A stretch of 64,000 bases of DNA from Candidatus Omnitrophota bacterium. Lineage in GTDB: Bacteria; Omnitrophota; Gorgyraeia; Duberdicusellales; 4484-171. A program made the translations under genes and the position numbers. Positions 3,120 to 52,005 of the stretch are shown piece by piece. Each line of letters begins with the position of its first letter. Within the stretch, counting starts at the first letter, position 1. Where the stretch lies: assembly GCA_021735655.1 (NCBI GenBank), contig JAIPGM010000002.1, forward strand, positions 256,001 through 320,000, in the 5' to 3' direction. The notes under the pieces were generated by a model. It ran no database searches. It was given only the letters and a program-made list of their open reading frames with translations, and was not told the origin of the DNA.

Positions 3120-4358
3120 TTAGGGCATCTTACGAATAGCTTCGACCCGTTTCAATACCGGCGGATGACTATAATCCAAAAATACCTTTAATCGATGCGG
3201 GCTTAAATTAGAAAGATTGTTTACAGTGAGCTTTTTAAGCGCCGAGATAAAGGCCTCCGGATTTTGATAGGTCCTTACCGCATAGCGATCAGCTTCATAT
3301 TCATGTTTTCGCGAAAGCAAATTACCGAATATTGAAAAAATAAAACTAATTGGTGTATAAAGGAAGCTAAAGAATATAAGCCCAGCGTAAACTGATATTT
3401 CATCCATTCTAAAAGCATTGAATAGCCCAGGATTTTTTATAAAAAATGAAAGCAGGTAAAACATCAGACCTTTAGTTAATGCTGAGAGTAAAAGACGTTT
3501 TATAATATGTTTCTTTTTATAGTGGCCAACTTCATGTGCTAAAACAGAAACAATTTCTTCAGTAGTGTGTTTTTGAATTAAAGTGTCAAATAAAGCAATC
3601 CGACGAGATTTGCCTAAACCAGTAAAAAAAGCGTTAGACTTACTTGACCGACGCGACCCATCAATTTTAAAAATACCCTTTATCTTGAACTTTTGCGAAT
3701 TAGCATAATCGCTAACCGCCTTTTTAAGCTCCCCATCTTCTAAGGGGGTAAATTTGTTAAAAAGCGGTAAAATTAACACCGGAGCAATAAAAATAAAAAA
3801 AGTACTTAAGAGAACCGTAGCCAACCAACACCAAAGCCAAGCTCCCTGATCGCTAAACTCGACAAAAAGACGTACAATTAAATAGAAAGCCGGACCGGCA
3901 ATAATTACCAACAATATCCAGTTTTTAATTAGATCAGTAATAAAAGTTTTTACGGTAGTTTTATTGAATCCATACTTCTCTTCAATAACAAAGGTCTGAT
4001 AAATAGAAAAAGGTATCTCAATAATTTGAAGTCCGAAAACAATAATTCCGGCAAAAATTAAACCGCTAAACTCAATATTTGAGCTCAAATCTCGGGAGAT
4101 TCGGTCAACTAAATTGAATCCTCCGCTTAGAATAAAAATGATAACAACTGTCGTAAAGACGGTTTTTTGAATAAGACTAAAGTAAGTATTTTCTTTAAGG
4201 TATTTTTGCGAACGACTATAGTCCTCAGGATTATAATAACCTTCAAATTCTGCAGGTAGACTAAAACCAACTGAGGAAATATTTAACATCTCTACGGTCA
4301 CCCGCAAGACATACTCGCCGATTAAAATAGCTAAAATAATAACTAAATAAGGATTCAT
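3120..4358 (-). CDS. M48 family zinc metallopeptidase (Ste24/HtpX-like), polytopic membrane protein
   Basis: A 412-aa ORF with multiple TM segments, an HEXXH motif (LAHEVGHYKKKH) and a downstream Glu (EYEADRYA). It sits immediately downstream of the GEMM-I riboswitch. Confidence 0.8.
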   Translation of the reverse strand: MNPYLVIILAILIGEYVLRVTVEMLNISSVGFSLPAEFEGYYNPEDYSRSQKYLKENTYFSLIQKTVFTTVVIIFILSGGFNLVDRISRDLSSNIEFSGLIFAGIIVFGLQIIEIPFSIYQTFVIEEKYGFNKTTVKTFITDLIKNWILLVIIAGPAFYLIVRLFVEFSDQGAWLWCWLATVLLSTFFIFIAPVLILPLFNKFTPLEDGELKKAVSDYANSQKFKIKGIFKIDGSRRSSKSNAFFTGLGKSRRIALFDTLIQKHTTEEIVSVLAHEVGHYKKKHIIKRLLLSALTKGLMFYLLSFFIKNPGLFNAFRMDEISVYAGLIFFSFLYTPISFIFSIFGNLLSRKHEYEADRYAVRTYQNPEAFISALKKLTVNNLSNLSPHRLKVFLDYSHPPVLKRVEAIRKMP

Positions 4359-5727: not shown

Positions 5728-6921
5728 TTAATTTTCCGAAATCGAATACCGAACTTTAGATTTTTGTATTTCCAAAGTGCTAGCCAGTTCGGTTTCAGTT
5801 ACAAACCCGAGTTCTTTTAAAATTTCTCCAAGCATAATTCCTCTTTTCCAATGAATTAAAAGAGCTTCATCGAGCTGATTTTGAGAAATTGCCTTTCGTT
5901 CAATTAATATCTGACCTAAAGGTTTATCATTGGTTGTCTTTCGATGATAGATTTCCGGTGTTGCGTCTTTATTTGTTTTGGTGTCACGACGATCAACCAT
6001 AAATTTGCTCTCAGGGATAGTTTTGAGGTAACGCTTTATTTCGGTAACTTTTTCATTAAGCTGAATCATATTTTCGATACCAGAAGTGTACTCTCGATTG
6101 ACTACGGCAATCGAAATTGTCATCAAAGGTGTATTTGTTAATTTACGAGTTCGATCGCGATTAACCACAAAACCTTGGTTGCGATCTATTTCAGAGTAAT
6201 GAAAAGGAATAATCGTATCGAAACTTTTAATAAAATTGTGGCATATTTGTGCGTATTTATCCATGGTGCTGATAAAAACAAAATCATCTCCTCCAATATG
6301 ACCGATAAAATCATCAGAATTTCCGAATTTTTTTACCGCGTCAATTAACAAGTGAGTTGTATGAAGAATTACTCCGTCACCTTTACGGTAGCCATAGACA
6401 TCATTGAAAGATTTAAAATTATCAATATCTAAATAAGCAAATGAAAATGGTTTTCCAGTTTTAAACTTTTCATTTAAGGCATCCTCAAATATTTTAGCAC
6501 CAGGAAGACCAGTTAAGGAACTCGCATAAATACTGTGTTGGGCGCGTCTTGCAGCCATTTCAATTCGAATACGTAAATCAAGCGGGTCTGGTGGTTTTAT
6601 CAAATAATCATCGACTCCTTGCTTTAGACTTAATAATTGAGCGCGTAATTGCCGCTTATTGATTAAAGTTATGACCGGAGTAAAAGCAGTGGCAAAATTT
6701 TCTTTTAAAAGCCGACACATGGCTAATTGTTCTTTACGGGCTGATTGAATATCAATGACTATGACATCAGGGGAAATTCTTTTTATTTTTTCGATATCTT
6801 GCGGTTGAGTAAATTCACGTAGGAAAACTTCGTATCCCCAACCGTCAAAACAAAAGCGCAGAACCTCTTTTAATTGACTATCCGAAGAGATAATTAAAAT
6901 TTTATGTATAGTATCAATCAT
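5728..6921 (-). CDS. Response-regulator receiver - GGDEF (GGDDF variant) - MshEN/T2SSE_N-like c-di-GMP-binding domain protein
   Basis: The REC domain has the phospho-Asp context VIVIDIQ, T in PVITLI and K in DYLIKP. The GGDEF domain has LDIDNFKSFNDVYGYRKGDGVI and the signature GGDDF in place of GGDEF, and the RxxD I-site is replaced by NSDD. The C-terminal 50 aa, LGEILKELGFVTETELASTLEIQ, fit the MshEN c-di-GMP-binding motif LGxxLLxxGLLxxxxLxxxLxxQ almost exactly. Confidence 0.8.
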   Translation of the reverse strand: MIDTIHKILIISSDSQLKEVLRFCFDGWGYEVFLREFTQPQDIEKIKRISPDVIVIDIQSARKEQLAMCRLLKENFATAFTPVITLINKRQLRAQLLSLKQGVDDYLIKPPDPLDLRIRIEMAARRAQHSIYASSLTGLPGAKIFEDALNEKFKTGKPFSFAYLDIDNFKSFNDVYGYRKGDGVILHTTHLLIDAVKKFGNSDDFIGHIGGDDFVFISTMDKYAQICHNFIKSFDTIIPFHYSEIDRNQGFVVNRDRTRKLTNTPLMTISIAVVNREYTSGIENMIQLNEKVTEIKRYLKTIPESKFMVDRRDTKTNKDATPEIYHRKTTNDKPLGQILIERKAISQNQLDEALLIHWKRGIMLGEILKELGFVTETELASTLEIQKSKVRYSISEN

Positions 6922-6929
6922 TTAAACTA

Positions 6930-9900
6930 TTATACCACTTTCTTCTGTTCCTCAATTATTTTTTGGGCTATTTCCTTTGGTACCTGGGTGTACTTTTTAA
7001 AATGCATTGAGCAACTTGCCCGGCCACTAGATAAAGACCTAAGATTGGTTACGTAACCAAACATTTCCGAAAGTGGAGCCTCAGCCGAAATTAGCTTTTG
7101 GTTACCTTTTGAATCCATACCTAAAATTTTCCCCCGACGCGCACAAAGATAACCAACAATACCACTAGTATGCTCTTCTGGAGTAAGTACTTCCAAGCTC
7201 ATGCAAGGCTCAAGAAGAACCGGACTCGCTTTTAAAAAAGCGTTTTTAAAGCAAGTTCTTGCAGCAATTTTAAACGCTAACTCTGAAGAATCAACTTCAT
7301 GGTATGAACCATCAACGAGCTTTACCTTAACATCGACCACCGGATAACCGGCATAAGAACCTTTTTTCATTGCTTCAATAATACCTTTCTCAACTGCCGG
7401 TATATAGTTTTTAGGTATTGCTCCACCTTTAATGCTATCTTTAAATTCAAAACCAGCAGCTTCTTCATTAGGAGAAAGCTCAATCGCTACGTGGCCGTAT
7501 TGGCCTCTGCCTCCGCTTTGCTTAGCATGTTTATACTCTTCGCTAGTAGACTGAAGGATTGTTTCTTTATAGGCAACTTTAGGCTGACCGGCCTGCGCTG
7601 AAACCTTAAATTCTTCCTTCAAACGTTCAACGATTATTTCAAGATGTAATTCTCCCATACCAGAAAGAATTGTTTCAGAGGTTTCCTCGTCGGTATGAGC
7701 GTTAAAAGTGGGGTCTTCTTCTGCTAGTTTAGCTAAACCCTTGGCCATCCTATCCTGATCGGAACGACTCTCCGGTTTTATGCTGATTGAAACGACTGGC
7801 TCAGAAAATTCAATTGACTCAAGTAATATTGGATTTTGAATGTCAGAGAGTGTATCGCCGGTTAAAGTGGAACTGAGACCGACAATTGCCGCAATATCAC
7901 CGGCAAACACTGCGTCAACATTTTCTCGTTGGTTAGCATGCATTCGAACAATTCTCCCGATACGCTCTTTTTTATTTTTAGTTGCATTTAAAACATAAGT
8001 TCCGGCCCTTAAGCATCCCGAATAGATTCGAGCATAGATCAATTTACCTACATGCTGGTCAGCTTGGACCTTAAAAGCAAGCGCTGAAAAAAATTCATCA
8101 TCTTGAGGCTTACGTTCCAAGCTTTTTTCTTTATCATCGGGGTCAGAACCAATAACTGGCGGAATTTCAGCCGGAGAAGGTAGATAGGCAACAACTGCAT
8201 CAAGCAAGTCTTGAACACCCTTATTTTTTAATGCTGACCCGCAAAAAACCGGAACAATCTTATTTGAAACTGTAGCTTTGCGCAAAGCCTCAGTCAGATC
8301 GTCTTTGCTGATTGACTCCTCTGACTGTAAGTATTTTTCCATTAATTTACCATCATAAGAGGCTACCCGATCAACCAAACTATGGCGGTATCTTTGAGCG
8401 ATTTCTTTATAGCTTTCATGAATATCTTCCGACCTAATATCTTTGCCTAAGGATTCGTCATTATAAAGATGCATTTTCATATTAATAAGATCAATTATGC
8501 CTTTAAAGTCACCTTCCTTACCGATCGGTATCTGTAAGGCAACTGGTTTAGCCCCAATAGTATTTTCGATCTCTTCTAAAACCTTAAAAAAATCAGCCCC
8601 GACCCGATCCATTTTATTTATAAAGGCTATCTTCGGTACATGATATTTATCCGATTGGCGCCATACGGTTTCAGTTTGAGACTCTACTCCTCCCACCGCA
8701 CAAAATACAGCAACTGCCCCATCTAGGACCCTTAACGATCTTTCAACTTCAGCGGTAAAATCAACGTGGCCGGGGGTATCAATAATAGTAATTTGGCAAT
8801 CTTTCCAACTACAAGTGGTTGCAGCTGAAGTTATAGTTATACCTCTTTCCTGTTCTTGTTTCATCCAATCCATCTGAGCTGCCCCGTCATGAACTTCGCC
8901 GATTTTGTGCGACCGGCCGGTATAGAAAAGAACTCTTTCAGTAAGAGTAGTTTTCCCAGCATCAATATGGGCCATAATCCCAATATTACGGATCTTGCCC
9001 AGTTCTATTTTTCTCTCCGGCAGTGGCTCCTCTACTTTTTTTACTGCTTCAGGCTTAGGCTCGGCTTGTATTTCTGGTTCTTGAGCCGATAGCTCCGGAG
9101 TCACTTCTTCACTTGCGGTTTCAGGTTGCCCTTGGGTCAAATCTTTAGTTTCACCTTCCTGCCCTTGGATTAAAGATTCGTCTTCCTTTAGCGATTCTTT
9201 ATCTGAAGGTAACTCTTCAAATTCCTTAGTTTCTGAAATAGGTTCACTTGGCTGCGCCTGAACTAACTCATTCTCAAGATTGGAAGATTCTTTTTGAGAA
9301 TCACCGTCCTCAATTAAAAGAATATCTGCTAACTCATCGTCCTTAATAACGCCGCTTCGTTTAATCTCGCGTAATTTATTAAGAATACGAATCCGCTCCT
9401 GATCAATTTTTTCGATATCTTTACCTTTTAGCTCCAACTCCTTAGATTTAATCTCTAACTCATTTTTTAATTCTTCACTTTGTTCTTCTAAAAGAGAGTA
9501 CTCTTCTTTAGATACCCATTCGCTTTGACGTTGTTTTTCTTTCATTTGAGCAACTTCAGCAGCATGTGCGACAGTTTCTTTAGATAGCTGGTGCATTCTT
9601 TGAGTCTGATCTTTTAGCTCACTTTCCAAAGAAATAATCTTATCTTTCAATTGATTGATATTGACTTCACGAATTTTGATTACTTCTTCAGCTTGATCAA
9701 GTTCTTTTTTAAACTGCACACTCCGGGAAAACTCTTTCTCTAAATCCTTTTCCTTAGTAATCAATTTAACTCTCAAAGCCTCATAGGGACCTTTTCCTTT
9801 TTTCAAAGTAAGCTGCTGACTATTAAGCCATTTTTTATTGCGGTTAATTTCCTCGCCCAATTCTTTAGCCTTGAGGCTAAGCTTTTGATGCTCATCTTGC

Positions 9901-10139
9901 AAGCTGAGATACTCAGCCTGAGTTTTTGTTAAGGCGACAATTTCATTTTTTAATTTTGTTAGTTCCCTTTTTGAAGATTTAAGGTTTTCTGACAAGGCAG
10001 AAATTTTTTGTTGTTGCAAGTCAGGCTTAAGGCCAAACTTTGTACCCAGAGTACCTTTTAAAACTGAATCATCTTCGTTGTTAACTAAATACAGTACTAG
10101 GGCAATCGATACTCCAATTACAACAAAAATTAAAGTCAT
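6930..10139 (-). CDS. Elongation factor G paralog with a ~390-aa N-terminal extension (TM anchor + long coiled coil + acidic linker)
   Basis: The 1069-aa ORF is continuous. Residues 1-22 form a TM helix ([21 protein letters not shown]). Residues ~40-260 form a K/E/L/Q heptad-rich coiled coil. Residues ~260-390 are an acidic E/S/P/Q-rich linker. From [27 protein letters not shown]...[25 protein letters not shown] onward it is a full-length EF-G (G domain through domain V, ~678 aa). The ATG at 10139 has a TGnTATAAT element 6 nt upstream and no SD. There is no in-frame stop between the extension and the EF-G body. Confidence 0.8.
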
Positions 10140-11639: not shown

Positions 11640-11873
11640 TTACATCAAAGTTACTGCTTCTTGAATGAATGGTAAGATTGCTTCAGCTTCTTCTTTAGAA
11701 ACTCTTCCTAAACGGGTAAGCCTAAAGTCACCGTTTGAATCCCGATTTTCGCGGGTAATTTGCAACTTCTTAGCACCTTTGTTGTAAGAAAATACCCCGA
11801 CTGTGACTTTTGTTGTTTCTGATTCCCAAGATTTAGAAAAAATCTTCTCGTCTAAATTGCTATCGTATGGCAT
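11640..11873 (-). CDS. Small PC4/YdbC-like putative ssDNA-binding protein
   Basis: A 77-aa ORF. The pattern SKSWESETTKVTVGVFSYNKGAKKLQITRENRD...RLGRVSKEEAEAIL resembles the bacterial PC4-like YdbC fold (W...R/K...ISLSEEE motif). This is a weak, memory-based call. Confidence 0.4.
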   Translation of the reverse strand: MPYDSNLDEKIFSKSWESETTKVTVGVFSYNKGAKKLQITRENRDSNGDFRLTRLGRVSKEEAEAILPFIQEAVTLM

Positions 11874-11922: not shown

Positions 11923-12642
11923 CTATTCCTGTGCCGAATGAGTTGTATGTTTTTCAACAAAAAGTACTATTTTTTCTTGAATTTCAGGATTTATGTCATT
12001 AAATTCAAGCCCCATACCGGGAAAATCTTCCGGCTGTATCTCTTGGTCAGAAATCCAGACTATTTTAGCATCAACTTCAAGTGTACCTGGTTCAGGAATT
12101 AGGTGTATTCGAGTATGTAATAAATCACCCATTGAAAATAATTTTTGGGCAGCTACAAAAACTCCATCCCCGCTTAAATTGATAATTTTTCCGCTATAGA
12201 ACTCATCTTGACTAGAAAACTTCTGTCGGTATTCAATACTGGAGTTAAACGGTATTCGTTTAAAGCGTCGACGAAACTGACTGTCTGATGACTCAATGAT
12301 ATTCTTTTCTTCCTTAATCTTCTTTATCGCATGATCTTCGGTAACATGATATTCAAAGATTCGATCTAAACCTACGATTGAAAATAATTTCATTACATGG
12401 GAGGGAACATTGCATAGCTTCATTGCTCCCTGATGATTCGATACATTTTTATAAATTACGGCAATAAGTGATATGCCTACATAATCAATTAAATTAACAC
12501 CTTCAAAATTACAAATGACGTTCTTGGATTTATTACTAAGAACCCAGCCAACAGTTTCAACAAAATTAGAGGCATTGATATCAATATTCCCTTCTAGGTC
12601 CAAAATGGCCATGCCCTCTTTTTCACGAATATCTATCTTCAT
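11923..12642 (-). CDS. STAS (anti-sigma-factor antagonist, SpoIIAA-like) - PilZ fusion protein
   Basis: The N-terminal ~110 aa resemble an anti-anti-sigma STAS domain (MKIDIREKEGMAILDLEGNIDINASNFVETV...). The C-terminal domain carries both canonical PilZ c-di-GMP motifs, RRFKR (RxxxR) and NLSGDG (D/NxSxxG), about 25 aa apart. Confidence 0.7.
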   Translation of the reverse strand: MKIDIREKEGMAILDLEGNIDINASNFVETVGWVLSNKSKNVICNFEGVNLIDYVGISLIAVIYKNVSNHQGAMKLCNVPSHVMKLFSIVGLDRIFEYHVTEDHAIKKIKEEKNIIESSDSQFRRRFKRIPFNSSIEYRQKFSSQDEFYSGKIINLSGDGVFVAAQKLFSMGDLLHTRIHLIPEPGTLEVDAKIVWISDQEIQPEDFPGMGLEFNDINPEIQEKIVLFVEKHTTHSAQE

Positions 12643-12686
12643 TTGTCTCGACGAAATTACCCCTCTAGGGATTTGGTTAAGTTACC

Positions 12687-13421
12687 TTAGACAATTATGC
12701 TCAGAATTGCTACTAAAATACAGTAATAACCAAAAATAGCAAATTTCTCAGATTTTAGCACTTTTTTGACTATTTTCAAAGCTAAAAATCCTGAAGCAAA
12801 TGCGGCCACAAAACCTCCACTAGCAGCCAAAATTGACATATTTAAGTCGGGTAGCTCCTTCATTTTTAGCAAAAATGCCCCTAAGGTAACTGGGATCATC
12901 ATTAAAAACGAGGTCGTAAACGCCTCTTTTGGTTTAAAACCCCTACCGATCAATCCAACGATAGTAATCCCTGAACGAGATATCCCTGGAAATATAGCTA
13001 AGCCCTGCAATAACCCGATAAATAATGATTCTTTTGTGGTAACAGTATCATAATTTCGCTGTCCGAAAACTTTTTTCATACTAAGCAAAATTAGACCATT
13101 TATGATGAGAAGTAAACCAATCCAAAGTTTATTTTCAAAAAAACCAACTAAAAAAGTGTTAATAGCTAGGCCAATTATTGCAGTAACTAGGGTAGTTATC
13201 CCTAATTGAATCAAAATCCTTCTTTTAGACAAAACTGACAATATGTCTCGACGTAAAAAAATAACGACTGCCAACAAAGTTGCTAAATGAAGAAGAACAA
13301 AGAAAGGAAGTAAATTTTGGCTAAAAGACAAAAGTCTTTTTATGATATAAAGATGTCCGGAGCTACTTATTGGAAGGAATTCAGTTAATCCTTGAGTAAT
13401 GCCCAAAGCTATGGTTTTCAC
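12687..13421 (-). CDS. uppP: Undecaprenyl-diphosphate phosphatase (BacA/UppP)
   Basis: A 244-aa polytopic membrane protein with the UppP signatures TEFLPISSSGHL and PGISRSGITI. Confidence 0.9.
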   Translation of the reverse strand: MKTIALGITQGLTEFLPISSSGHLYIIKRLLSFSQNLLPFFVLLHLATLLAVVIFLRRDILSVLSKRRILIQLGITTLVTAIIGLAINTFLVGFFENKLWIGLLLIINGLILLSMKKVFGQRNYDTVTTKESLFIGLLQGLAIFPGISRSGITIVGLIGRGFKPKEAFTTSFLMMIPVTLGAFLLKMKELPDLNMSILAASGGFVAAFASGFLALKIVKKVLKSEKFAIFGYYCILVAILSIIV

Positions 13422-13425
13422 TAAA

Positions 13426-14121
13426 TTAACCCTTTAAAAGAAGATAAAGCAAAGCGCCAAAAATAATTATACCAATAGCCAGTATGGTATATTCAAGAAT
13501 CCCTGCCTTGCTTTTATTAAGTGGGATATCATCTAACACAAATTCCTCTTCAGGTTCGCTAACCGGTGTTTTTTTCGGCTCTGGCTCCGGTTCTGGTTCT
13601 GGCTCGGGAAGAATTTCCTCTTTTTCTGGTTCGGCCAAAGTTTCAGCGGGAACTGGCTCAATATTTTCGGAAGGCTTTCCTTGATTAGACTCTGGTTCCA
13701 AAGAAGCCAAGGCCTCTTCGGTTTTTTCAGGAACAATTTCAGTTATCTCCTCAGAAACAACTGGCGTTTCTTTAATTTCTGGCTCTGGTTCTATAGCTGG
13801 TATCTCTGAAGAAATATCAGCTGCACCAGGCACATATTCCATATCCTCTCTTGGCTCAACCGGCAAAGCCGGTTCAGGAGCTAACTCTGGTTGAATCTCT
13901 GGAACTTCTTTTTCAACTGAAGGTGTTATTACTGGCTCTGGCTGAGCTTCTTCTGATTTTACCGATTCTTCGTCAATAGCCAACTTATCCATGAGTTCGC
14001 CTAAAGTACTCCGACAATCATGGCAAACACAAAGATGCTCTTCAACATTTTTTATTTCATCTTCATTCGCAGTGTGATTAAAATATTTAGGAATTATAAT
14101 TTTAATTTCTTCGCAGTCCAT
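13426..14121 (-). CDS. Putative membrane-anchored zf-HC2 anti-sigma factor with a Pro/Glu-rich repeat linker
   Basis: The N-terminus carries HLCVCHDC, the Hx3Cx2C zinc motif of ChrR/RsrA-type anti-sigma factors. The middle ~130 aa are PE-rich and include PEPEPEPEPEP. The C-terminus has one TM helix (ILAIGIIIFGALLYLLL). No ECF sigma gene is adjacent. Confidence 0.55.
   Translation of the reverse strand: MDCEEIKIIIPKYFNHTANEDEIKNVEEHLCVCHDCRSTLGELMDKLAIDEESVKSEEAQPEPVITPSVEKEVPEIQPELAPEPALPVEPREDMEYVPGAADISSEIPAIEPEPEIKETPVVSEEITEIVPEKTEEALASLEPESNQGKPSENIEPVPAETLAEPEKEEILPEPEPEPEPEPKKTPVSEPEEEFVLDDIPLNKSKAGILEYTILAIGIIIFGALLYLLLKG
13545..13625. repeat. Short tandem GGYTCYGGY-type repeat encoding a (PE)n low-complexity run
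   Basis: Seen in sequence: ggctctggctccggttctggttctggctcggg. It generates the spurious plus-strand ORFs 13484..13684 and 13533..13736. Confidence 0.5.
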
Positions 14122-14160: not shown

Positions 14161-14188
14161 ATTATAGCATAGAGAGACCCTATCGCAA
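14161..14188 (-). promoter_or_regulatory. Sigma-70-like promoter for the anti-sigma / uppP / STAS-PilZ operon
   Basis: On the minus strand: TTGCGA (14188..14183), a 16-nt spacer, TATAAT (14166..14161). The SD AAAGGAGAGG precedes the ATG at 14121. Confidence 0.35.
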
Positions 14189-14230: not shown

Positions 14231-16201
14231 CTAAAAGCTTACTTTACAACCGGCAAAGAAGTTTCTTTCTGGAGAAGGATAAAGTCCTCGCGTGGTACCG
14301 GTAAGATTAGTTGCAGCGTACTCACTGTAAAGTTCGTTAAATAAATTATTAACACCGGCAAAAAGCTCTAACTTTTTTCCGGTATAACTTAATTTTATAT
14401 TAGTTGTGTTGTAACTTTTTAACTTAGGGCTGATATTATTAAGATCATTAATTAAATAAACTTTATCTCGATAAAGATAATCAGCAAAAAATGAAAAGCG
14501 TTCAAAAAAATCATATTTTACCGAAGCTGTAAGCATAGCCTTAGGAACGAAAGGAACTTCCTTTCCAGCGTAAACACCGCCACGGAATTTCGCATCGATA
14601 AAGCGATAGCCGAGAGTAAACTTTGTATTGTCAAATGGGGTAAGGGTTGTAGTGAGATTCGCACCTTGACGACGAATTTTACTATAATTTTCGTTAGCGA
14701 ACGTCCCTGGGTTGTAGTATATTTCGTTATTAACATTCATTTGAAAATAATCCAAAGATGTGGTTAAAAAGTCAGTTAAACGCATATTGGCCCCCAAACT
14801 TATAGTTTTAGAACGTTGTGGTTTTAAATTTGTATTAATTGCTGCAGCCGGCCAAGTAACTAAGTATTCATCGGTCTTACCGACCCTCAAACCTCGCGAA
14901 AAATTAAGATAAATATTACTTTCGTTATCGATTTTATAGTTAAGTCCAGTTTCATACAAGCCTTCTCGAAAATTCAATCCATCATCAGTGCTTGTAGAAC
15001 CAAAATAATCAAAAGTAAACTTTTCTTTTTGCACCCTAGCCCCTAAATGCCCAGCAAGTTTTTCATTAAAGCTAATTTCATCCTGTAAAAACCAAGCTAG
15101 GCTCTGTCGATCAATGTCAGTAGCCGCGCTTGAGGTATCAGCTGATAAATCCGAACTATAAAATTCAAATCCGGCAATTAGCTCTTGTTGAATTCCTCTA
15201 GTATCAAAAGACAATAATAGTTGTGGCCGCGCTTGAAAATTAGTTATATGTTTGTCAGTAGACATGCTATAAGAAAGTAAATCCTCCAACTCATTTCGGT
15301 TACGATAAAATAAATCAACTGAAGCAATCAGCTCAGGTGAAAACTCGTTTTTAATAGTTAAGCCTAAAGTATTATCCTCTCGTTGATAGTTATTTAAAGG
15401 AGTTGTTGAGTCACGACGTGAAGTTCCAGCTAACCGTTCAGCTTCGGTTATATCATCTGGCAATCCATAGATATATTCGTGATGAGTCAAGTCAGCACTT
15501 ATCTCTAACTGTTCGGTAGGCCTAGAGTTTAGTTCTATTGAGCTGTATTTTGAGCGGTAATGACTATTTTGACGATAACCACTTGTTGAATGGTACTCAG
15601 AAAATGTGCGAAACGATAAAAGGTCTTCTCCACCTGAGGCTGAAATAGACTCTTTGGTCGAGCGGTAACTTCCGGCTTCAAAGTTAACTTCAACTGAAAG
15701 ATCCTTAGCTTGAGGATCTTTTGAAATAATATTAACTATTCCTCCGGCAGCACCCTCTCCATACAGGACAACTCCGCCACCCCGGATTACTTCTATTCGT
15801 TCAACATTTTTTAAGGGCAACTCAGTCCAGTTAACTCCGCTCATATCGATTTCATTAATTTTTCGACCATTCACTAAAACCAGCATGTTTGATGCAGCAT
15901 TATCACCAAAACCCATCATATCAACAGTTGTCTTAACGTTAGTTCCGTAATAATCGCTGACGTGTAACGACGGAACATTTCTTAAGAAATCAATTACTGT
16001 GCTTGATCCGCTAGCCTTGATATGTTTCTCGGTATATACTTTGGTCGCATAAGGAGTTTCAGAAATTGTTGTTTCTTCTACTCCGGCATAAGGAGTTACT
16101 ACTATTTGCTCTAAATCTATTTGTCCTTGCGCCAACAAAGGACTTAATGATCCAAATTGAATAGTCAAAAATAATATTAAAAATACAAAACACCTTTTCA
16201 T
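14231..16201 (-). CDS. TonB-dependent outer-membrane receptor (BtuB-like, downstream of a cobalamin riboswitch)
   Basis: A signal peptide (MKRCFVFLILFLTIQFGSLSPLLAQG) is followed by a plug domain and a 22-strand barrel that ends in a terminal Phe (GCKVSF). The start is taken as the ATG at 16201, which has a GGAGGGGG SD, rather than the upstream GTG used by the ORF track. Confidence 0.85.
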   Translation of the reverse strand: MKRCFVFLILFLTIQFGSLSPLLAQGQIDLEQIVVTPYAGVEETTISETPYATKVYTEKHIKASGSSTVIDFLRNVPSLHVSDYYGTNVKTTVDMMGFGDNAASNMLVLVNGRKINEIDMSGVNWTELPLKNVERIEVIRGGGVVLYGEGAAGGIVNIISKDPQAKDLSVEVNFEAGSYRSTKESISASGGEDLLSFRTFSEYHSTSGYRQNSHYRSKYSSIELNSRPTEQLEISADLTHHEYIYGLPDDITEAERLAGTSRRDSTTPLNNYQREDNTLGLTIKNEFSPELIASVDLFYRNRNELEDLLSYSMSTDKHITNFQARPQLLLSFDTRGIQQELIAGFEFYSSDLSADTSSAATDIDRQSLAWFLQDEISFNEKLAGHLGARVQKEKFTFDYFGSTSTDDGLNFREGLYETGLNYKIDNESNIYLNFSRGLRVGKTDEYLVTWPAAAINTNLKPQRSKTISLGANMRLTDFLTTSLDYFQMNVNNEIYYNPGTFANENYSKIRRQGANLTTTLTPFDNTKFTLGYRFIDAKFRGGVYAGKEVPFVPKAMLTASVKYDFFERFSFFADYLYRDKVYLINDLNNISPKLKSYNTTNIKLSYTGKKLELFAGVNNLFNELYSEYAATNLTGTTRGLYPSPERNFFAGCKVSF

Positions 16202-16227
16202 ACTACCCCCTCCTTTAAAACTAATCT

Positions 16228-16262
16228 TAAAATAAAAAAACCCTATACCTTCTGGTATAGGG
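16228..16262 (-). terminator. Rho-independent terminator / riboswitch expression-platform hairpin upstream of the TonB receptor
   Basis: Minus-strand RNA CCCUAUACC-AGAA-GGUAUAGGG is followed by UUUUUUUAUUUU. It forms a perfect 9-bp stem, lies between the cobalamin aptamer and the receptor start codon, and fits attenuation control. Confidence 0.55.
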
Positions 16263-16329
16263 TGCACCCTGATTTACTTGGCCCTAAAATAAAAAAATTC
16301 AGGTAATGTTTCCACGCAAAACCTAAACT

Positions 16330-16520
16330 TTGCTTCTTACGGCAGGTCTTCTGACTTCCCTACATCTTTTAGCTACCTTCCCACCTGCATTTTAAAACAG
16401 ATAGTGGTTTAAATCGCTAAAAGGGCCCTAAAATTATCTCTAGGGGTCGGGATCACAGCACCGGGAGTGTCTCCGATTCTCACGGAGTTCCCTATTAAGC
16501 TCCTTTTGAGCACCGTAAAA
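16330..16520 (-). promoter_or_regulatory. Cobalamin (AdoCbl) riboswitch
   Basis: The minus-strand RNA contains GGUGCU...UUAAUAGGGAACUCCGUGAGAAUCGGAG...CCCGGUGCUGUGA...ACCACUAUC...GCAGGUGGGAAGGUAGC. It matches the cobalamin aptamer consensus elements AGGGAA, GUGnnAAUC, CCCG-ACUGU-like, a B12-box-like CCACU and a distal GGGAAGG. It lies upstream of the TonB receptor (the classic btuB arrangement), with a consensus promoter upstream and a terminator downstream. Confidence 0.6.
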
Positions 16521-16550
16521 TTAGCTACTTTTATACAAAGAACATCTGTA

Positions 16551-16578
16551 TTATAACTTACAACTTTAACCTGTCAAC
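16551..16578 (-). promoter_or_regulatory. Consensus sigma-70 promoter driving the cobalamin-riboswitch leader
   Basis: On the minus strand: TTGACA (16578..16573), a 16-nt spacer, TATAAT (16556..16551). This is a perfect consensus. Confidence 0.5.
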
Positions 16579-16974: not shown

Positions 16975-17487
16975 TTAGTATTTGATGAGGGAATAAACTG
17001 GATAGTCTATAATCTTGTCTTTACCTTTAAGGCCAACAAGCTCGATTAAAAAAGCAATACCAACAATCTCGGCCTTGAGTTCTTTTGCTAGATTAACCAT
17101 AGCATTAGCAGTTCCGCCAATTGCCAGTAAATCGTCTAGGATTAAGACCTTAGCTCCTTCAGGGAAAGCATCCTTGTGAATTTCTAAGGAGTCCTCTCCG
17201 TACTCTAAAGCATAAGTATGACTATGAGTCTCAGCCGGAAGCTTTCCCGGTTTTCTGACCGGGACAAAACCACAACCTAATTTATAAGCCAATGCTCCAC
17301 CAAAAATAAAACCGCGAGATTCAGCAGCCACAATATAGTCAAACTGAAGATCTTTAAGTAATTCTGCCAATTGATCAATCGCCAATCTAAAAGCCTCTTT
17401 ATTATTCAATAATGTAGTAATGTCACGAAACAAAATACCTTTCCTAGGGAAGTCAGGAATAGCCCTTATGTATTTGCTAAGTTCCAT
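16975..17487 (-). CDS. apt: Adenine phosphoribosyltransferase
   Basis: A 170-aa ORF with the PRTase motif VLILDDLLAIGGTA and the typical Apt N-terminus (IPDFPRKGILFRDIT). Confidence 0.9.
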   Translation of the reverse strand: MELSKYIRAIPDFPRKGILFRDITTLLNNKEAFRLAIDQLAELLKDLQFDYIVAAESRGFIFGGALAYKLGCGFVPVRKPGKLPAETHSHTYALEYGEDSLEIHKDAFPEGAKVLILDDLLAIGGTANAMVNLAKELKAEIVGIAFLIELVGLKGKDKIIDYPVYSLIKY

Positions 17488-18305
17488 TACTCTACCTCCC
17501 TTTTTCGCTCTTCTTGAGTATACTTACGTAATTTCTTTAAAGCTTCTTGCTCGATTTGTCTTACTCGTTCTCGAGATACATTTAAAACACTCGCCACCTC
17601 GGCTAAAGTATGCGGTCGACCATCAGTTATTCCAAAGCGTAGATCAAGCACCGACTTCTCACGGTCACCAATCGAAGTAAGTAGCTGCTTGACTCTTTCT
17701 TTAGTAAAAGCCATCTCAACGTTAGCTTCGGTGTCGGCATATTCGCTACTCTCGATAAAATCACTTAATTGTGATTCGCCTTCGCTTCCTACCGGGGCCT
17801 CAAGCGAGGATTTTTTCTGAGACCAAAGTTCAATCTCAGAAATTTTATCAACTTTCATCTTTAGCTTTTTAGAAAGCTCAAGTCTAGTTGGTTCGCGACC
17901 ATTTTTTTGACGTAACTGCTCGCAAGCTTTCTTATACTTTGATTGTAGCTCACTCATATATACCGGAATGCGAATAGTTTTACCTTGATCGATTAAAGAT
18001 CTCGTTACGGCTTGGCGTATCCACCAAGCAGCGTAAGTTGAAAAGCGGTAGCCTCTGCGAGTATCGAATTTGTCGATCGCCCGCATAAGACCAATATTTC
18101 CTTCAGCAATTAAATCCATCAAGGTGAGATTAAAGTGACTGTAGTGTTTAGAAATATTTACCACTAATTTTAAATTACAATTAATTACTTTACGACGAGC
18201 ATCTCGGCTGCCTTTTTTTGCCTTTTGAATTAAATCTATCTCTTCTTTTTTAGTAAGCAGCGGTAGATCTTTGATTCTTTCTAAATAGGCTTTAATTGCG
18301 TCCAT
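17487..18305 (-). CDS. RNA polymerase sigma factor, sigma-70 group 1/2 family (compact RpoD/RpoS-like, no region 1.1)
   Basis: Region 2 reads DLIAEGNIGLMRAIDKFDTRRGYRFSTYAAWWIRQAVTRSLIDQGKTIRIPVYM. Region 4 is an HTH (TLAEVASVLNVSRERVRQIEQEALKKLR). The protein is 272 aa. Confidence 0.85.
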   Translation of the reverse strand: MDAIKAYLERIKDLPLLTKKEEIDLIQKAKKGSRDARRKVINCNLKLVVNISKHYSHFNLTLMDLIAEGNIGLMRAIDKFDTRRGYRFSTYAAWWIRQAVTRSLIDQGKTIRIPVYMSELQSKYKKACEQLRQKNGREPTRLELSKKLKMKVDKISEIELWSQKKSSLEAPVGSEGESQLSDFIESSEYADTEANVEMAFTKERVKQLLTSIGDREKSVLDLRFGITDGRPHTLAEVASVLNVSRERVRQIEQEALKKLRKYTQEERKREVE

Positions 18306-48881: not shown

Positions 48882-49951
48882 TGCCCAGCCTCCTGATATA
48901 CTTTTACGGTTTCAGAAACCATACGTTGCAAGGAAAAATTAAAAACGTCCCTATAGGCCTGTTCAACGATTCTCTCTCTCAATTCTTTACCCGAAATAAC
49001 TTCCTCAATCGCCGAAGCTAAAGCAAAAGGTTTATAGTCATAAAATAAAATTCCATTTTCACCGTTCCTAATAATTTCTGATATTCCTCCAGTATTGTAG
49101 CCAACTACCGGAACCTTTTTAGCAAAAGCTTCAACCACTGAATAACCAAAACCTTCTTTTATCGAAGGAGCAATCAATAAATCTACCAGGTCAAGAAACT
49201 CCTCGGAAGTAGTTTGAATAAACTTTACATTGCGATTAAGCTCACTAGCCTCTATCGCCTCTTTTAATTCGTCTTTTAATTTACCTTCACCAGACACTAA
49301 AAGATAGGCATCCTTATGCCGGGGAAGTAATTTTTTCATTGCTTCAAGAGCTAAAAAATGTCCTTTCTCTTGAGATATTCTACCAAGAATCCCAATTAGA
49401 TAATCTCCGGATCCAAACCCATACTGCTTACGATTGATAACCTTAGGAGAAAACTCTTCGGCGTCAATACCATTATAAACCACCCGAATCTTTTTTTCAC
49501 TAATCCCTAAATCATCAACTAAGTGATGCTTTACTTTTTTACTAACAGCAATTGACAGAACTCCCGAAAACGAAAATAATTTTCGAAACAACCCCGGCTT
49601 ATAGAACCCGTGGAATGCACAAATGTAAGGAACCTGATATCTTTTCTGAATCAAAGCTCCAAGGCTTTGAGTCGCCCGAGTATTAGCATGAATTAGATCA
49701 ATTTTAGTTTTACGGATTAATCTTTTCAAAACAAAACAAGAAAACAATATTTTAAAACTAAAAATAGCCTTTGTTTTTATTGGAATATATTTATGTACTA
49801 TGCCAACTTTCACTAATTCCGGAACCCAACTCCCACCGCTTGAAGCCACGAAAACCGTATGTCCTTGTTTAACCAATCCTTTAGCTAAATTTAAAACATA
49901 GCGAGAAACTCCACCGGGATTTAGATGGGTCGCTAAAATCAGAATATTCAT
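48878..49951 (-). CDS. GT4 family glycosyltransferase
   Basis: A C-terminal EGFGYSVVEAFAKKVPVV (EX7E). Confidence 0.8.
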   Translation of the reverse strand: MNILILATHLNPGGVSRYVLNLAKGLVKQGHTVFVASSGGSWVPELVKVGIVHKYIPIKTKAIFSFKILFSCFVLKRLIRKTKIDLIHANTRATQSLGALIQKRYQVPYICAFHGFYKPGLFRKLFSFSGVLSIAVSKKVKHHLVDDLGISEKKIRVVYNGIDAEEFSPKVINRKQYGFGSGDYLIGILGRISQEKGHFLALEAMKKLLPRHKDAYLLVSGEGKLKDELKEAIEASELNRNVKFIQTTSEEFLDLVDLLIAPSIKEGFGYSVVEAFAKKVPVVGYNTGGISEIIRNGENGILFYDYKPFALASAIEEVISGKELRERIVEQAYRDVFNFSLQRMVSETVKVYQEAGQ

Positions 49952-52005
49952 TACTTAAACAAGCTCCTAAGCTTATTAAATACTTCCTGCGGTGTTATTT
50001 TTTCTAAACAAAGTGAACTTTCAGAAAATTTACATTTTGGTTTATAGCAAAAGGAACAAGGTAATTTTTGACAGAAAGTACTAAGGTTACTAGCCTCCAC
50101 AGTATGCCGACTAGGGTCAGTTGGTCCAAAAAGAGCAACCACTGGTATTCCGATAGCCATCGCTAGATGAAGAGTTGCTGTGTCGGGGGTGATAAAGACT
50201 TTAAGCCTACGCAAGGCTTGAGCTAAACCGCCAAGAGTAGTTTTGCCGCAAAGGCTGATTGGCGGAATTTTCAAAGCAGCTTCAATCTCGGTGGCTAGTT
50301 TCTTAGACTGTTCTTCACCGAAAAGCAGAACTTTAGTTCCTGGTAAATTTTTTTGAATCAATTCAATTAACCTAACAATATGTCTAGCCGGCCAATTCTT
50401 TGAAACCCAACGTGAAGAGGCCGCTATATTGATTCCAATAAGATTAGCCTCGGGTAAATTAACCTCAGCTCGATTGTTAGTTTCCCAAAAAATTAACTTT
50501 TTTTCTTTAAGCCTTACGCCCAATAATTCTAAAATTGACTCTTGAGAGCTAAGCGGATCTAAGTTACGTTTACAAGTTATTCGATTGGAGAGCAACTTAC
50601 CCCAACGAAGACTATAGCCAAATGAGTAGCGTCCAAAACTTAAAAAAGAAATTAAATGCGAAGCATGATTATTCTGAAAATCAATTATATAATCAAAACT
50701 CTCGCGACGTAAATTCTTTGAAAGCTTACAAAGATTAGTAAATTTCTTATAATTATCCTCCACGGTAATAATCTTATCGACATAAGGGCACCCGTCTAAT
50801 AAGGAATAATACTTCCTTGAAGTCAAAAGAGAAATTTTAGCCTTCGGGTAGGCTTGACGAATCGCTTTAAGCGAAGGGAAACTTAAAATAAGATCACCCA
50901 AAGAAGAAATTTTAACTACTAAAATATTTAAACCGCTAATCGTGGACTCATAAACTTTTTTGGTCTCATCTAAACATTGCTCTGAAGCATAAAACCGTTC
51001 TACCTTCCTGCGTGCGCACTCAGTAAGCCTTTGGGCATATTGCGGATCCTTCACTAGTTGTAAAATAGCTTGGCCTATTGCTTCAGAGTTTTTAGGTTCA
51101 ACCAAAATACCATCTTTACCCTGTTCAATTATCTCCTTGAATCCTCCAAGGTTGCTTGCAATTACCGGAACTCCACAAGCAAAAGCCTCAATCACCACCC
51201 GGCCAAATGACTCCTCAATTACTGAAGGTGCAATCAGGACTCGTGCTTTACTCAAAGCATCTTCGATATCTTTCTTAAAACCAATAAACTCAACATTGTA
51301 ATTTAAAGAAAAACGGCTTACCAAACTTTTCAAATAATCCAAATATCTTAGCTTAGATTTATCGGCCGAACCTATTATTTTTAACTTAAAATAAGGATTA
51401 AATCGCACCACTCGCCTAAAACCCTCTATCAAATATTCATAACCCTTAGTCGATGAAATACGCCCAATACTAACAATCAAATTACTTTGAGCTCTACTCT
51501 GATAATCACAAAAGTTAAACTTAGCTAAATCTACCCAACGTGGTATAACTTTAATCTTCTCGTCACTAACCCCAAACTGTTCCTTCATATGGCGAGCAAC
51601 TACTTTGGAAGGACAAATAACATATTTACCCCAGCCCATAACATCACTAGACAAAGGGCTTTTGTAAACACCGTGAGCCGTGGTAATAAAGTGGGTCTGA
51701 GTTGTCCGTGTTGCAAAAAAGCTTATCCAGGCTGGCACGCGGCTTCGAGCATGAACAATATCAATATTTTCTTTACGAATAATCTCTCTTAATTTTCGTA
51801 TATAGAGCAAACTAAAGATAGATTTCCTATGCACTGGTAGTTTATAGTGAGTAATACCTTGCTTTTCTAGCTCCTCAACGAGTCTCCCTCCGGAGCTAAC
51901 CACAATATTGTCCACCCCGCGGTCCTTAAAATATTTTACTAAATCGATCACTCCCCGCTCGATACCACCAATATTCATAGCTGGAAGAATCTGCATTATG
52001 CGCAT
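49951..52005 (-). CDS. Bifunctional GT4 - GT9 fusion glycosyltransferase
   Basis: Residues 1-~350 are GT4 (ESFGRVVIEAFACGVPVIAS). Residues ~355-684 are GT9 (ISSLGDLILSFPSLKAIRQAYP ... TPDTATLHLAMAIG). Confidence 0.8.
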   Translation of the reverse strand: MRIMQILPAMNIGGIERGVIDLVKYFKDRGVDNIVVSSGGRLVEELEKQGITHYKLPVHRKSIFSLLYIRKLREIIRKENIDIVHARSRVPAWISFFATRTTQTHFITTAHGVYKSPLSSDVMGWGKYVICPSKVVARHMKEQFGVSDEKIKVIPRWVDLAKFNFCDYQSRAQSNLIVSIGRISSTKGYEYLIEGFRRVVRFNPYFKLKIIGSADKSKLRYLDYLKSLVSRFSLNYNVEFIGFKKDIEDALSKARVLIAPSVIEESFGRVVIEAFACGVPVIASNLGGFKEIIEQGKDGILVEPKNSEAIGQAILQLVKDPQYAQRLTECARRKVERFYASEQCLDETKKVYESTISGLNILVVKISSLGDLILSFPSLKAIRQAYPKAKISLLTSRKYYSLLDGCPYVDKIITVEDNYKKFTNLCKLSKNLRRESFDYIIDFQNNHASHLISFLSFGRYSFGYSLRWGKLLSNRITCKRNLDPLSSQESILELLGVRLKEKKLIFWETNNRAEVNLPEANLIGINIAASSRWVSKNWPARHIVRLIELIQKNLPGTKVLLFGEEQSKKLATEIEAALKIPPISLCGKTTLGGLAQALRRLKVFITPDTATLHLAMAIGIPVVALFGPTDPSRHTVEASNLSTFCQKLPCSFCYKPKCKFSESSLCLEKITPQEVFNKLRSLFK

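Follow-up and report, generated by a model that had tools for sequence, protein, structure and literature searches.

The gene pair described here, encoding a fusion of a STAS domain with a PilZ domain and a zf-HC2 zinc-finger protein, belongs to a conserved operon of the uncultivated phylum Omnitrophota, an arrangement that suggests a second-messenger-controlled protein switch working without phosphorylation. It was analysed in a 64-kb stretch of Candidatus Omnitrophota DNA (the window), in which positions 11923-14121 are filled exactly by three minus-strand open reading frames (ORFs): a gene for a tail-anchored protein resembling zinc-binding anti-sigma (ZAS) factors (13426..14121; 231 amino acids; Pfam zf-HC2); uppP (bacA), for undecaprenyl-diphosphate phosphatase (12687..13421; 244 amino acids, GTG start; Pfam and NCBIfam); and the STAS-PilZ gene (11923..12642; 239 amino acids; Pfam, NCBIfam, alignment and an AlphaFold2 model). 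Only 4 nt separate the zf-HC2 stop from the uppP start, and 44 nt lie between uppP and the STAS-PilZ gene. Our reading, which is tentative, is that cyclic di-GMP (c-di-GMP) at the interdomain linker of the fusion gates the binding of its STAS domain to the tethered zinc finger, modulating the finger's client, probably a sigma factor encoded elsewhere.

Both domains of the 239-residue protein were recognised by Pfam above the curated cut-offs: STAS (PF01740) at residues 3-103 (12334..12636, minus strand; E=1.4e-14, 54.1 bits against a cut-off of 22.6) and PilZ (PF07238) at residues 124-230 (11953..12273, minus strand; E=4.1e-16, 59.6 bits against 22.5, covering positions 2-101 of the 102 in the profile). 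An earlier note on this DNA, written from the sequence alone, had described such a fusion; the coordinates match, the C-terminal domain fits the PilZ profile, and the observation is confirmed far beyond chance. The STAS domain is of the SpoIIAA/RsbV type and passed the NCBIfam model TIGR00377 (anti-sigma factor antagonist; 56.2 bits against 53.45), which is presumably why public records name the protein an anti-sigma factor antagonist.

The two c-di-GMP motifs that the note had called intact proved to be so when read from the DNA: RxxxR (R125-R-F-K-R129) lies in the interdomain linker and is preceded by an extra arginine (R124-R125-R126-F-K-R129; 12256..12273, minus strand), and N155-L-S157-G-D-G160 (12180..12163, minus strand) agrees with [D/N]hSxxG, the refined form of the PilZ motif (10.1101/814665). 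Across 35 aligned homologues that share 52-84% identity with the window protein (mean column identity 67%), the c-di-GMP residues R124, R125, R129, S157 and G160 never vary, and R125, R129 and G160 are still invariant in a more distant set reaching down to ~20% identity. A degenerate PilZ domain was accordingly rejected as a candidate, the motif residues being invariant. Other two-domain PilZ receptors bind c-di-GMP at the linker between their domains, where the canonical PilZ domain begins (10.1101/814665). Taken together, these sequence features predict a genuine two-domain c-di-GMP receptor with a SpoIIAA-type STAS output.

The STAS domain is equally constrained, with an invariant surface in the same 35 homologues (E29, G32, D53, Y54, G56, S58, Y64, K65, N66, N69, P80 and H82). 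A HMMER alignment to the SpoIIAA structures 1TH8, 1TID and 1AUZ places 'DSSG' opposite 'DYVG' of the window protein, and 1TID reads D-A-S-G at the aligned loop. We take the 1TID variant to be a phospho-site mutant; because it differs at the residue after the aspartate, that residue is the phospho-acceptor, here Tyr54 (12483..12481, minus strand). The phosphorylatable Ser/Thr that follows the conserved aspartate (S58 of SpoIIAA) is therefore replaced by a tyrosine, invariant in all 35 homologues, and the whole Omnitrophota STAS-PilZ family is predicted to be devoid of the canonical phosphorylation switch.

Both domains were folded confidently by AlphaFold2 (mean predicted local distance difference test, pLDDT, 86.8). 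In the model the PilZ half forms a six-stranded beta-barrel followed by a C-terminal helix (strands at residues 135-214, helix at 219-238, pLDDT ~85-93). The linker carrying RRRFKR was modelled with low confidence (pLDDT ~58-60) and the predicted TM-score (pTM) was 0.49, so the relative orientation of STAS and PilZ is undefined. Foldseek searches against the PDB matched the N-terminal half to SpoIIAA (1TH8), RsbV (6M36) and TM1442 (1VC1), with target-normalised TM-scores of 0.83-0.88, and the C-terminal half to the c-di-GMP-bound PilZ domains of Alg44 (4RT0), MapZ (5XLY), MotI (5VX6) and YcgR (5Y6F), and also to BcsA; no solved chain in the PDB spanned both halves.

The protein at the head of the operon matched Pfam zf-HC2 (PF13490) at residues 3-37, above threshold and marginally (E=3.8e-5, 24.1 bits against a cut-off of 22.2), together with a weak anti-sigma match in NCBIfam (E=0.019); one metagenome source names a homologue 'anti-sigma-YlaC factor YlaD'. 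Three parts can be distinguished, all on the minus strand: a 46-residue zinc-finger domain delimited by the invariant columns of 40 orthologues (13984..14121); a low-complexity Glu/Pro-rich linker at residues 47-205 (13507..13983; 28% E, 19% P); and a C-terminal transmembrane helix at residues 206-230 (13432..13506), seen in the AlphaFold2 model and as a hydrophobic C-terminus in the orthologues. Only 'KG' remains beyond this helix, so the protein has no extracytoplasmic domain; the hydrophobic C-terminus ending in K-G is conserved among the orthologues, which share the layout at 87-454 amino acids (median ~100) and differ in the length of their Glu/Pro/Lys-rich linker, which is very variable. 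The protein is thus a minimal, tail-anchored ZAS-like form without an outside sensor.

The invariant pattern of the 40 orthologues reads M-x-C3 ... Y13 .. H16 ... E-E-H29-L-C31-x-C33-x-x-C36-R. The putative zinc ligands C3, H29, C33 and C36 are invariant and align in register with the zinc ligands of RsiW (PDB 5WUQ). The AlphaFold2 model shows helices at residues 3-14, 20-32 and 34-56 (pLDDT 91-95 for residues 1-50), a disordered linker (pLDDT ~45-65) and the transmembrane helix (pLDDT 96-98); after the three confident helices the chain is disordered, and a conserved fourth helix is not seen. A sequence profile gave weak matches in the PDB to RsiW, RslA and ChrR (E 0.7-1.4), and all nine Foldseek matches in the PDB were anti-sigma domains bound to extracytoplasmic function (ECF) sigma factors, at non-significant values (best E=0.73). 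On sequence and model, the domain very probably derives from a zinc-binding anti-sigma domain. Beyond the four ZAS ligands the finger has an invariant C31 (H-L-C-x-C-x-x-C), His16 and Tyr13; its four cysteines and two histidines could serve as a redox switch or hold an Fe-S cluster or a further metal ion.

The pairing of the two genes was followed across species-representative genomes, in which 46 STAS-PilZ loci were found, 44 of them assessable (L025 and L032 were left out). All 46 appear to belong to Omnitrophota; titles reading 'uncultured Planctomycetia' or Methanosarcinales were taken as mislabelling or mis-binning. Immediately 5' of STAS-PilZ, and on its strand, a zf-HC2 gene is present in 41 of the 44 assessable loci (tblastn and motif inspection), and the three exceptions (L042, L044 and L045) constitute the most divergent clade, at 36-38% identity. 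uppP separates the two genes in ~30 loci; 11 others lack it, and there the distance from the zf-HC2 stop to the STAS-PilZ start is -4 to +79 nt; in L016 and L036 the two genes share an ATGA start/stop overlap. Unsupervised clustering of the neighbouring ORFs recovered zf-HC2 in 38 loci, uppP in 29 and any other gene in at most 18. A neighbour-joining tree of STAS-PilZ spreads the uppP-less state over at least five separate lineages, so that uppP has come and gone without breaking up the zf-HC2/STAS-PilZ pair.

A reciprocal scan of metagenome contigs with the zinc-finger DNA pattern gave 52 loci of the family, 10 of which are cut off by contig ends; STAS-PilZ lies downstream of zf-HC2 in 36 of the 42 assessable loci, including three in which it persists as a frameshifted, internally deleted remnant like that of L047 (Candidatus Susulua stagnicola). 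In all, the analysis yielded at least 57 distinct zf-HC2/STAS-PilZ gene pairs. The remaining six loci, from four lineages, have zf-HC2, usually with uppP, and no STAS-PilZ: zf-HC2 and uppP are kept together in L063, L066 and L073/L081, and zf-HC2 is found without both other genes in L086. The finger is fully conserved in these lineages, and in one of them also without uppP; its main constraint must therefore be some third partner, a pattern that fits an anti-sigma factor with an optional antagonist.

Two zf-HC2 loci outside the family (L102 and L103), also retrieved by the reciprocal scan, are both preceded by an overlapping ECF sigma gene and serve as a positive control, the classical ECF/zf-HC2 arrangement being recognisable in the same scan. 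A tblastn search of 846 kb of family loci with the ECF sigma factors of L102 and L103 as queries (no profile search) found no ECF sigma gene. In the window, Pfam scans covering every ORF of 110 amino acids or more found no ECF sigma factor, no RsbW/SpoIIAB-type kinase (HATPase_c_2) and no PP2C/SpoIIE phosphatase, and the only sigma factor in the window is a 272-residue RpoD-like protein (18305..17487). The earlier note's view of the zf-HC2 protein as an orphan thus holds over the 64 kb, and the cognate kinase or sigma factor it had proposed to look for did not turn up there. Among the recurrent neighbours of the 46 related loci no HATPase_c_2 kinase and no PP2C/SpoIIE was apparent by inspection, the only means used. 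With a tyrosine in the place of the phospho-serine, and neither kinase nor phosphatase found nearby, the STAS domain seems to have given up control by phosphorylation. The c-di-GMP-gated partner-switching module that the note had proposed is retained in part: it gains strength from the pair, which is conserved in 41 of 44 loci and outlasts the loss of uppP, and from the invariance of the c-di-GMP residues, but a module of the canonical SpoIIAA type is contradicted by the invariant tyrosine at the phospho-site and by the failure to find a kinase or PP2C nearby.

In the mechanism that we propose, c-di-GMP would be clamped between the R125xxxR129 motif of the linker and N155-L-S-x-x-G160 of the PilZ barrel. 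An arginine preceding RxxxR, as in PP4397, favours the binding of a c-di-GMP dimer, and because such an arginine is present here, the ligand is probably an intercalated dimer. Binding would order the flexible linker and so change the presentation of the STAS face (D53-Y54-x-G56-x-S58, Y64-K-N and P80-x-H82), the nucleotide replacing phosphorylation as the input that sets whether this face is engaged. The likeliest partner of the face would be the cytoplasmic three-helix finger of the ZAS-like protein from the head of the same operon. The finger would probably keep another protein at the membrane, a sigma factor encoded elsewhere being the most plausible one, and STAS-PilZ would compete for the finger in a c-di-GMP-dependent manner; uppP would be a co-transcribed envelope gene outside the core of the switch. 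The analysis itself shows the domains, motifs and folds, the missing phospho-site and the conserved pairing; that c-di-GMP binds, that STAS touches the zinc finger, which way the switch works and that there is a sigma target are all inferred. A more specific version, in which the fusion is a c-di-GMP-gated STAS antagonist of a membrane-tethered, possibly redox-sensitive zinc-finger anti-sigma factor and releases or captures a sigma factor without any phosphorylation, is on balance doubtful. By analogy, the conserved RpoD-like factor, whose gene lies a few genes upstream, might be the sigma factor concerned; the Rsb system of Chlamydia has been proposed to control the primary sigma factor.

Several observations weigh against the proposed mechanism. 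The deep clade of L042, L044 and L045 keeps the STAS face without an adjacent zf-HC2 gene, and six metagenome loci keep zf-HC2 without STAS-PilZ, so neither protein strictly needs the other. No sigma partner for the zinc finger was found among the family loci and the window scanned, and the promoter of the operon is sigma-70-like rather than ECF-like. The finger has only ~46 conserved residues in three helices, and its matches to anti-sigma domains in the PDB are individually non-significant (E ~0.7-1.4). We know of no STAS protein that antagonises a zf-HC2-type anti-sigma factor, and no paper on such an antagonist was found in our literature search. The neighbourhood consists of syntenic housekeeping genes (rpoD-like, apt, rpsU, uppP, yqeY, fusA-like), and some of the adjacency could reflect inherited gene order. 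Finally, in partial Mantel/mirror-tree comparisons it is STAS rather than PilZ whose distances the zinc finger tracks (partial r 0.32 when uppP is controlled for, 0.57 when PilZ is), but this co-variation is non-specific: uppP too tracks STAS better than PilZ, and STAS is therefore probably just the cleaner phylogenetic marker.

Some of these points fit a different arrangement, in which the STAS domain acts on a non-kinase anti-sigma factor, an enzyme or a transporter elsewhere, and zf-HC2 is merely co-expressed and has a function of its own. We regard this as rather unlikely, while recognising that the divergent clade without a nearby zf-HC2 retains the complete STAS face (ETVGW, DY.G.S, YK..NH), that four lineages keep a fully conserved zf-HC2 without STAS-PilZ, and that STAS proteins such as HsbA, MlaB and SiaC differ in their partners. 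HsbA binds the non-kinase anti-sigma factor FlgM as well as HsbD, and MlaB binds MlaF. SiaC, grouped with the STAS proteins in PMC9239204, has SiaD as its partner (PMC8457831). What argues for a local partner is that the two genes are adjacent in 41/44 genome loci and 36/42 metagenome loci, sometimes with translational overlap, and that the pair has withstood the loss of uppP, at least five times independently, as well as changes in both flanks. These same changes bear on the idea of housekeeping synteny without functional coupling, in which STAS-PilZ would be one of many PilZ receptors. The region is indeed broadly syntenic across Omnitrophota, and other stand-alone PilZ genes occur near related loci; but both flanks have changed around a retained pair in many divergent loci (L011, L021, L026-28, L036-41), zf-HC2 is a far commoner neighbour than any other gene, and the ATGA overlap of L016 and L036 points to coupling, all of which makes inherited order alone improbable.

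The intervening uppP gene gives rise to another interpretation: zf-HC2 and STAS-PilZ might regulate UppP, or a step dependent on undecaprenyl phosphate (peptidoglycan, lipopolysaccharide or exopolysaccharide), post-translationally through c-di-GMP and with no sigma factor involved. uppP lies between the pair in ~30 of 41 genome loci and stays with zf-HC2 where STAS-PilZ is missing (L063, L066, L073/L081), and polysaccharide and envelope outputs are classic targets of c-di-GMP. There are also analogies with polysaccharide-controlling STAS proteins: SypA is described as regulating a polysaccharide layer (PMC10120452), and a STAS module of this kind is described in Anabaena (bioRxiv 10.64898/2026.04.08.717354). 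Against this, uppP has left at least five times while zf-HC2 and STAS-PilZ remained adjacent, L086 keeps zf-HC2 with neither uppP nor STAS-PilZ, and the finger resembles only sigma-binding anti-sigma domains in sequence and fold; we judge a dedicated envelope module unlikely. Least probable of all is a classical phospho-switch, in which a distant RsbW/SpoIIAB-type kinase and a PP2C would act on the STAS domain and PilZ would provide a secondary input. The STAS domain does pass TIGR00377 and superposes on SpoIIAA and RsbV, and the rare fusions P0223, P0256 and P0233 keep a canonical D-S-S/Q-G site, but the phospho-acceptor position is an invariant tyrosine in the whole Omnitrophota family, with no HATPase_c_2 or SpoIIE in the window and none apparent on inspection of the recurrent neighbours.

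A c-di-GMP-gated contact between STAS and zinc finger, as we propose, shares traits with several known systems. The fusion has the STAS fold and family of SpoIIAA/RsbV of Bacillus and their conserved Asp-x-x-Gly loop at the partner face, and differs from them in the invariant tyrosine in place of the phospho-serine, in the PilZ fusion, and in its genomic setting, with no HATPase-type kinase or PP2C nearby and a ZAS-like zinc finger as the adjoining candidate partner. Direct control of a sigma/anti-sigma switch by c-di-GMP without phosphorylation is a concept shared with RsiG-sigma(WhiG) of Streptomyces, where c-di-GMP arms an anti-sigma factor (PMC7005675, PMC8325347). RsiG is a helical anti-sigma factor that has neither STAS nor PilZ and itself binds c-di-GMP at the sigma interface, whereas in the switch proposed here the nucleotide would act one level up, on the antagonist. 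To our knowledge RsiG-WhiG is the only characterised c-di-GMP-controlled sigma/anti-sigma switch.

The covalent fusion of a partner-binding domain to a signal domain, with the signal exposing or hiding the binding face, recalls PhyR-NepR-sigma(EcfG), the general stress switch of Alphaproteobacteria, in which an anti-anti-sigma domain is fused to a signal-receiving domain. PhyR combines a sigma-like domain with a phospho-receiver and its partner NepR has no zinc finger, whereas here STAS is combined with PilZ and the signal would be a nucleotide. As in YcgR, MotI/DgrA, PlzA and MrkH (10.1101/814665), the PilZ domain is canonical and C-terminal with RxxxR in the interdomain linker, and c-di-GMP is expected to re-orient the N-terminal domain, which in those receptors is a PilZ-like barrel (PilZN and similar) and here is STAS. 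A STAS-type switch protein wired into c-di-GMP signalling is also found in Pseudomonas, where HsbA and SiaC are STAS or STAS-like proteins linked to c-di-GMP (PMC8457831; bioRxiv 10.1101/2024.11.25.625174). HsbA and SiaC work upstream of c-di-GMP, activating diguanylate cyclases under control by phosphorylation, whereas STAS-PilZ would act downstream of c-di-GMP and lacks the canonical phospho-site.

The zinc-finger protein shares with RsiW, RslA, ChrR, RsrA and the minimal YlaD the arrangement C-x25-H-x3-C-x2-C and a helical N-terminal domain followed by a transmembrane segment. It departs from them in having three helices, ~46 conserved residues and a transmembrane segment at the extreme C-terminus, as well as in the additional invariant residues C31 and H16 and in the marked variability of its acidic linker, and from the classical ZAS loci (L102, L103) in having no adjacent or overlapping ECF sigma gene.

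The fusion itself is widespread in one phylum. Besides an identical protein (P0001) there are over 147 homologous clusters at 90% identity. All have ~239 amino acids and both domains, and every named cluster belongs to Candidatus Omnitrophica/Omnitrophota; a HMMER pass over 1.84 billion representatives gave 31 matches at E<=1e-30 and weaker full-length matches. In the alignments STAS-PilZ fusions fall into at least three sequence groups, of which the Omnitrophota family, with the loop D-Y-x-G, is by far the largest. A second group has S-S-S-G-like loops and partly degenerate PilZ motifs, and one of its members (L048) lies in an unrelated gene context without zf-HC2 or uppP. The third is rare, with a canonical D-S-S/Q-G site and intact PilZ motifs, and only two full-length clusters of it were found. 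A STAS-PilZ fusion is described nowhere in the literature that our searches on STAS with PilZ, on PilZ architectures and on Omnitrophota together with c-di-GMP or sigma factors brought up, and the main survey of PilZ domains and fusions (10.1101/814665) has STAS nowhere in its text.

Variants of the gene were observed in individual lineages. L025 carries two tandem STAS-PilZ paralogues, at 217-927 and 1018-1767, which share 58% and 44% identity with the window protein. Only a remnant of STAS-PilZ, with no ORF, is left in the lineage of Candidatus Susulua stagnicola (L047 1283-1665; L054 5965-6347; L056; L057): residues 8-71 run into residues 172-235 in another reading frame, and a deletion of ~100 residues has taken out both c-di-GMP motifs; the zf-HC2 and uppP genes have stayed intact. 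In 6-7 related loci, stand-alone PilZ proteins that carry RxxxR and DxSxxG/NxSxxG are encoded on the opposite strand a few kb downstream (for example, L019 13265-13642 and L028 6224-6568, both minus strand), and PilZ receptors seem abundant in these small Omnitrophota genomes.

uppP, which the earlier note had correctly placed between the two genes, was identified by Pfam BacA/UppP (PF02673; E=3.8e-61, 207.5 bits against 33.4, profile positions 2-257 of 257) and by NCBIfam TIGR00753 (E=1.6e-42), with a score of 146 that is below the equivalog cut-off of 217.5, as expected for a divergent phylum. The catalytic motifs LTEFLPISSSGH (EFLPISSSGH) and PGISRSGITI are present in its translation.

A promoter-like site of the sigma-70 type (TTGCGA-16 nt-TATAAT; extended -10, with a TG in front of it) lies 40 nt 5' of the zf-HC2 start codon (14161..14188, minus strand), and a similar site (TTGtaa/TTGCGA-N16/17-TGnTATAAT) precedes zf-HC2 in about half of 40 related loci. 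Matches in a promoter/terminator scan of this region were no commoner than in shuffled sequences, which makes the site weak alone, and it gains some support only from its conservation across loci. No ECF-like promoter was seen upstream of the operon; an ECF-type autoregulated operon was rejected, the ECF sigma gene being absent and the promoter sigma-70-like. The same scan found no terminator-like site between the three genes or between STAS-PilZ and the downstream orf77, so the transcript may extend further downstream. orf77 (11640-11873, minus strand; 77 amino acids) lies directly 3' of STAS-PilZ, is 57-86% identical across Omnitrophota and had no match in Pfam, NCBIfam or the PDB; it may be co-transcribed with STAS-PilZ.

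The syntenic neighbourhood of the phylum comprises PPDK, rpoD-like, apt and rpsU, and then orf77, orf208, orf107, yqeY and a long EF-G gene. rpsU (ribosomal protein S21) lies 4-450 nt 5' of zf-HC2 in 39 related loci, often after the RpoD-like gene and apt (for example, L009 7448-7606; L021 7532-7684; L081 3841-3996). It was not found in the window, where, as in its lineage, a B12 receptor takes this position. This BtuB-like TonB-dependent receptor gene (14231-16267, minus strand) adjoins the operon upstream and is under a cobalamin riboswitch (16324..16532, minus strand; 81.7 bits). A perfect TTGACA-16-TATAAT promoter (16577..16550) and a terminator-like hairpin (16263..16240) accompany the riboswitch; for the receptor gene, the GTG listed as the start at 16267 is probably an error, translation more likely beginning at the methionine at residue 23. 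On the other side, the EF-G homologue (6930-10139, minus strand; 1069 amino acids) has an N-terminal extension of ~380 residues, hydrophobic at its start and then long, charged, coiled-coil-like and Glu/Pro-rich, and many Omnitrophota loci share this extended form (36-75% identity over the tblastn-aligned segments).

The STAS-PilZ gene is, as the earlier note had counted, the third c-di-GMP-related element of the window. One of the others is a c-di-GMP-I riboswitch (RF01051; 4429-4584, minus strand; 60.8 bits) 5' of a gene for a membrane M48/CAAX-prenyl-protease-type peptidase (3120-4358, minus strand), an unusual class for such control. The other is a REC-GGDEF-type gene recognised by Pfam (5728-6921, minus strand), with the signature GGDDF and a GGDEF match covering only positions 5-90 of the 161 in the profile; in the C-terminus of its product, two LGxxL...L...L..Q/H repeats resemble, by sequence, the c-di-GMP-binding MshEN (T2SSE_N) motif, and a homologue lies 3' of the long EF-G gene in nine related loci. 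Two further fusions were noted in the window: a 601-residue protein joining a lipid A acyltransferase (PF03279) to an ELM1-like domain (PF06258) (52005-53810, minus strand), within a lipopolysaccharide core/lipid A cluster, and a 684-residue GT4 and GT9 heptosyltransferase fusion (49951-52005).

STAS and PilZ domains are already known, as is the idea of c-di-GMP acting on sigma/anti-sigma pairs. New are the STAS-PilZ architecture as a conserved family, the loss of its phospho-site, and its phylum-wide pairing with an orphan, minimal ZAS-like protein, with the classical partner-switching enzymes not found nearby. Minimal tail-anchored ZAS-like proteins without an adjacent sigma gene are flagged by this analysis as a distinct class. 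As the conserved family has a candidate partner next door, the hypothesis can be tested directly with three small recombinant proteins and without culturing. Receptors are the least complete part of c-di-GMP signalling, and if the more specific version of the mechanism is true, STAS-PilZ would provide a new route from c-di-GMP to global transcription and would be the first STAS antagonist of a ZAS-type anti-sigma factor. The fusion of PilZ to an anti-anti-sigma domain would give c-di-GMP a second, mechanistically different way to reach protein partner switching, with the nucleotide replacing the kinase/phosphatase pair.

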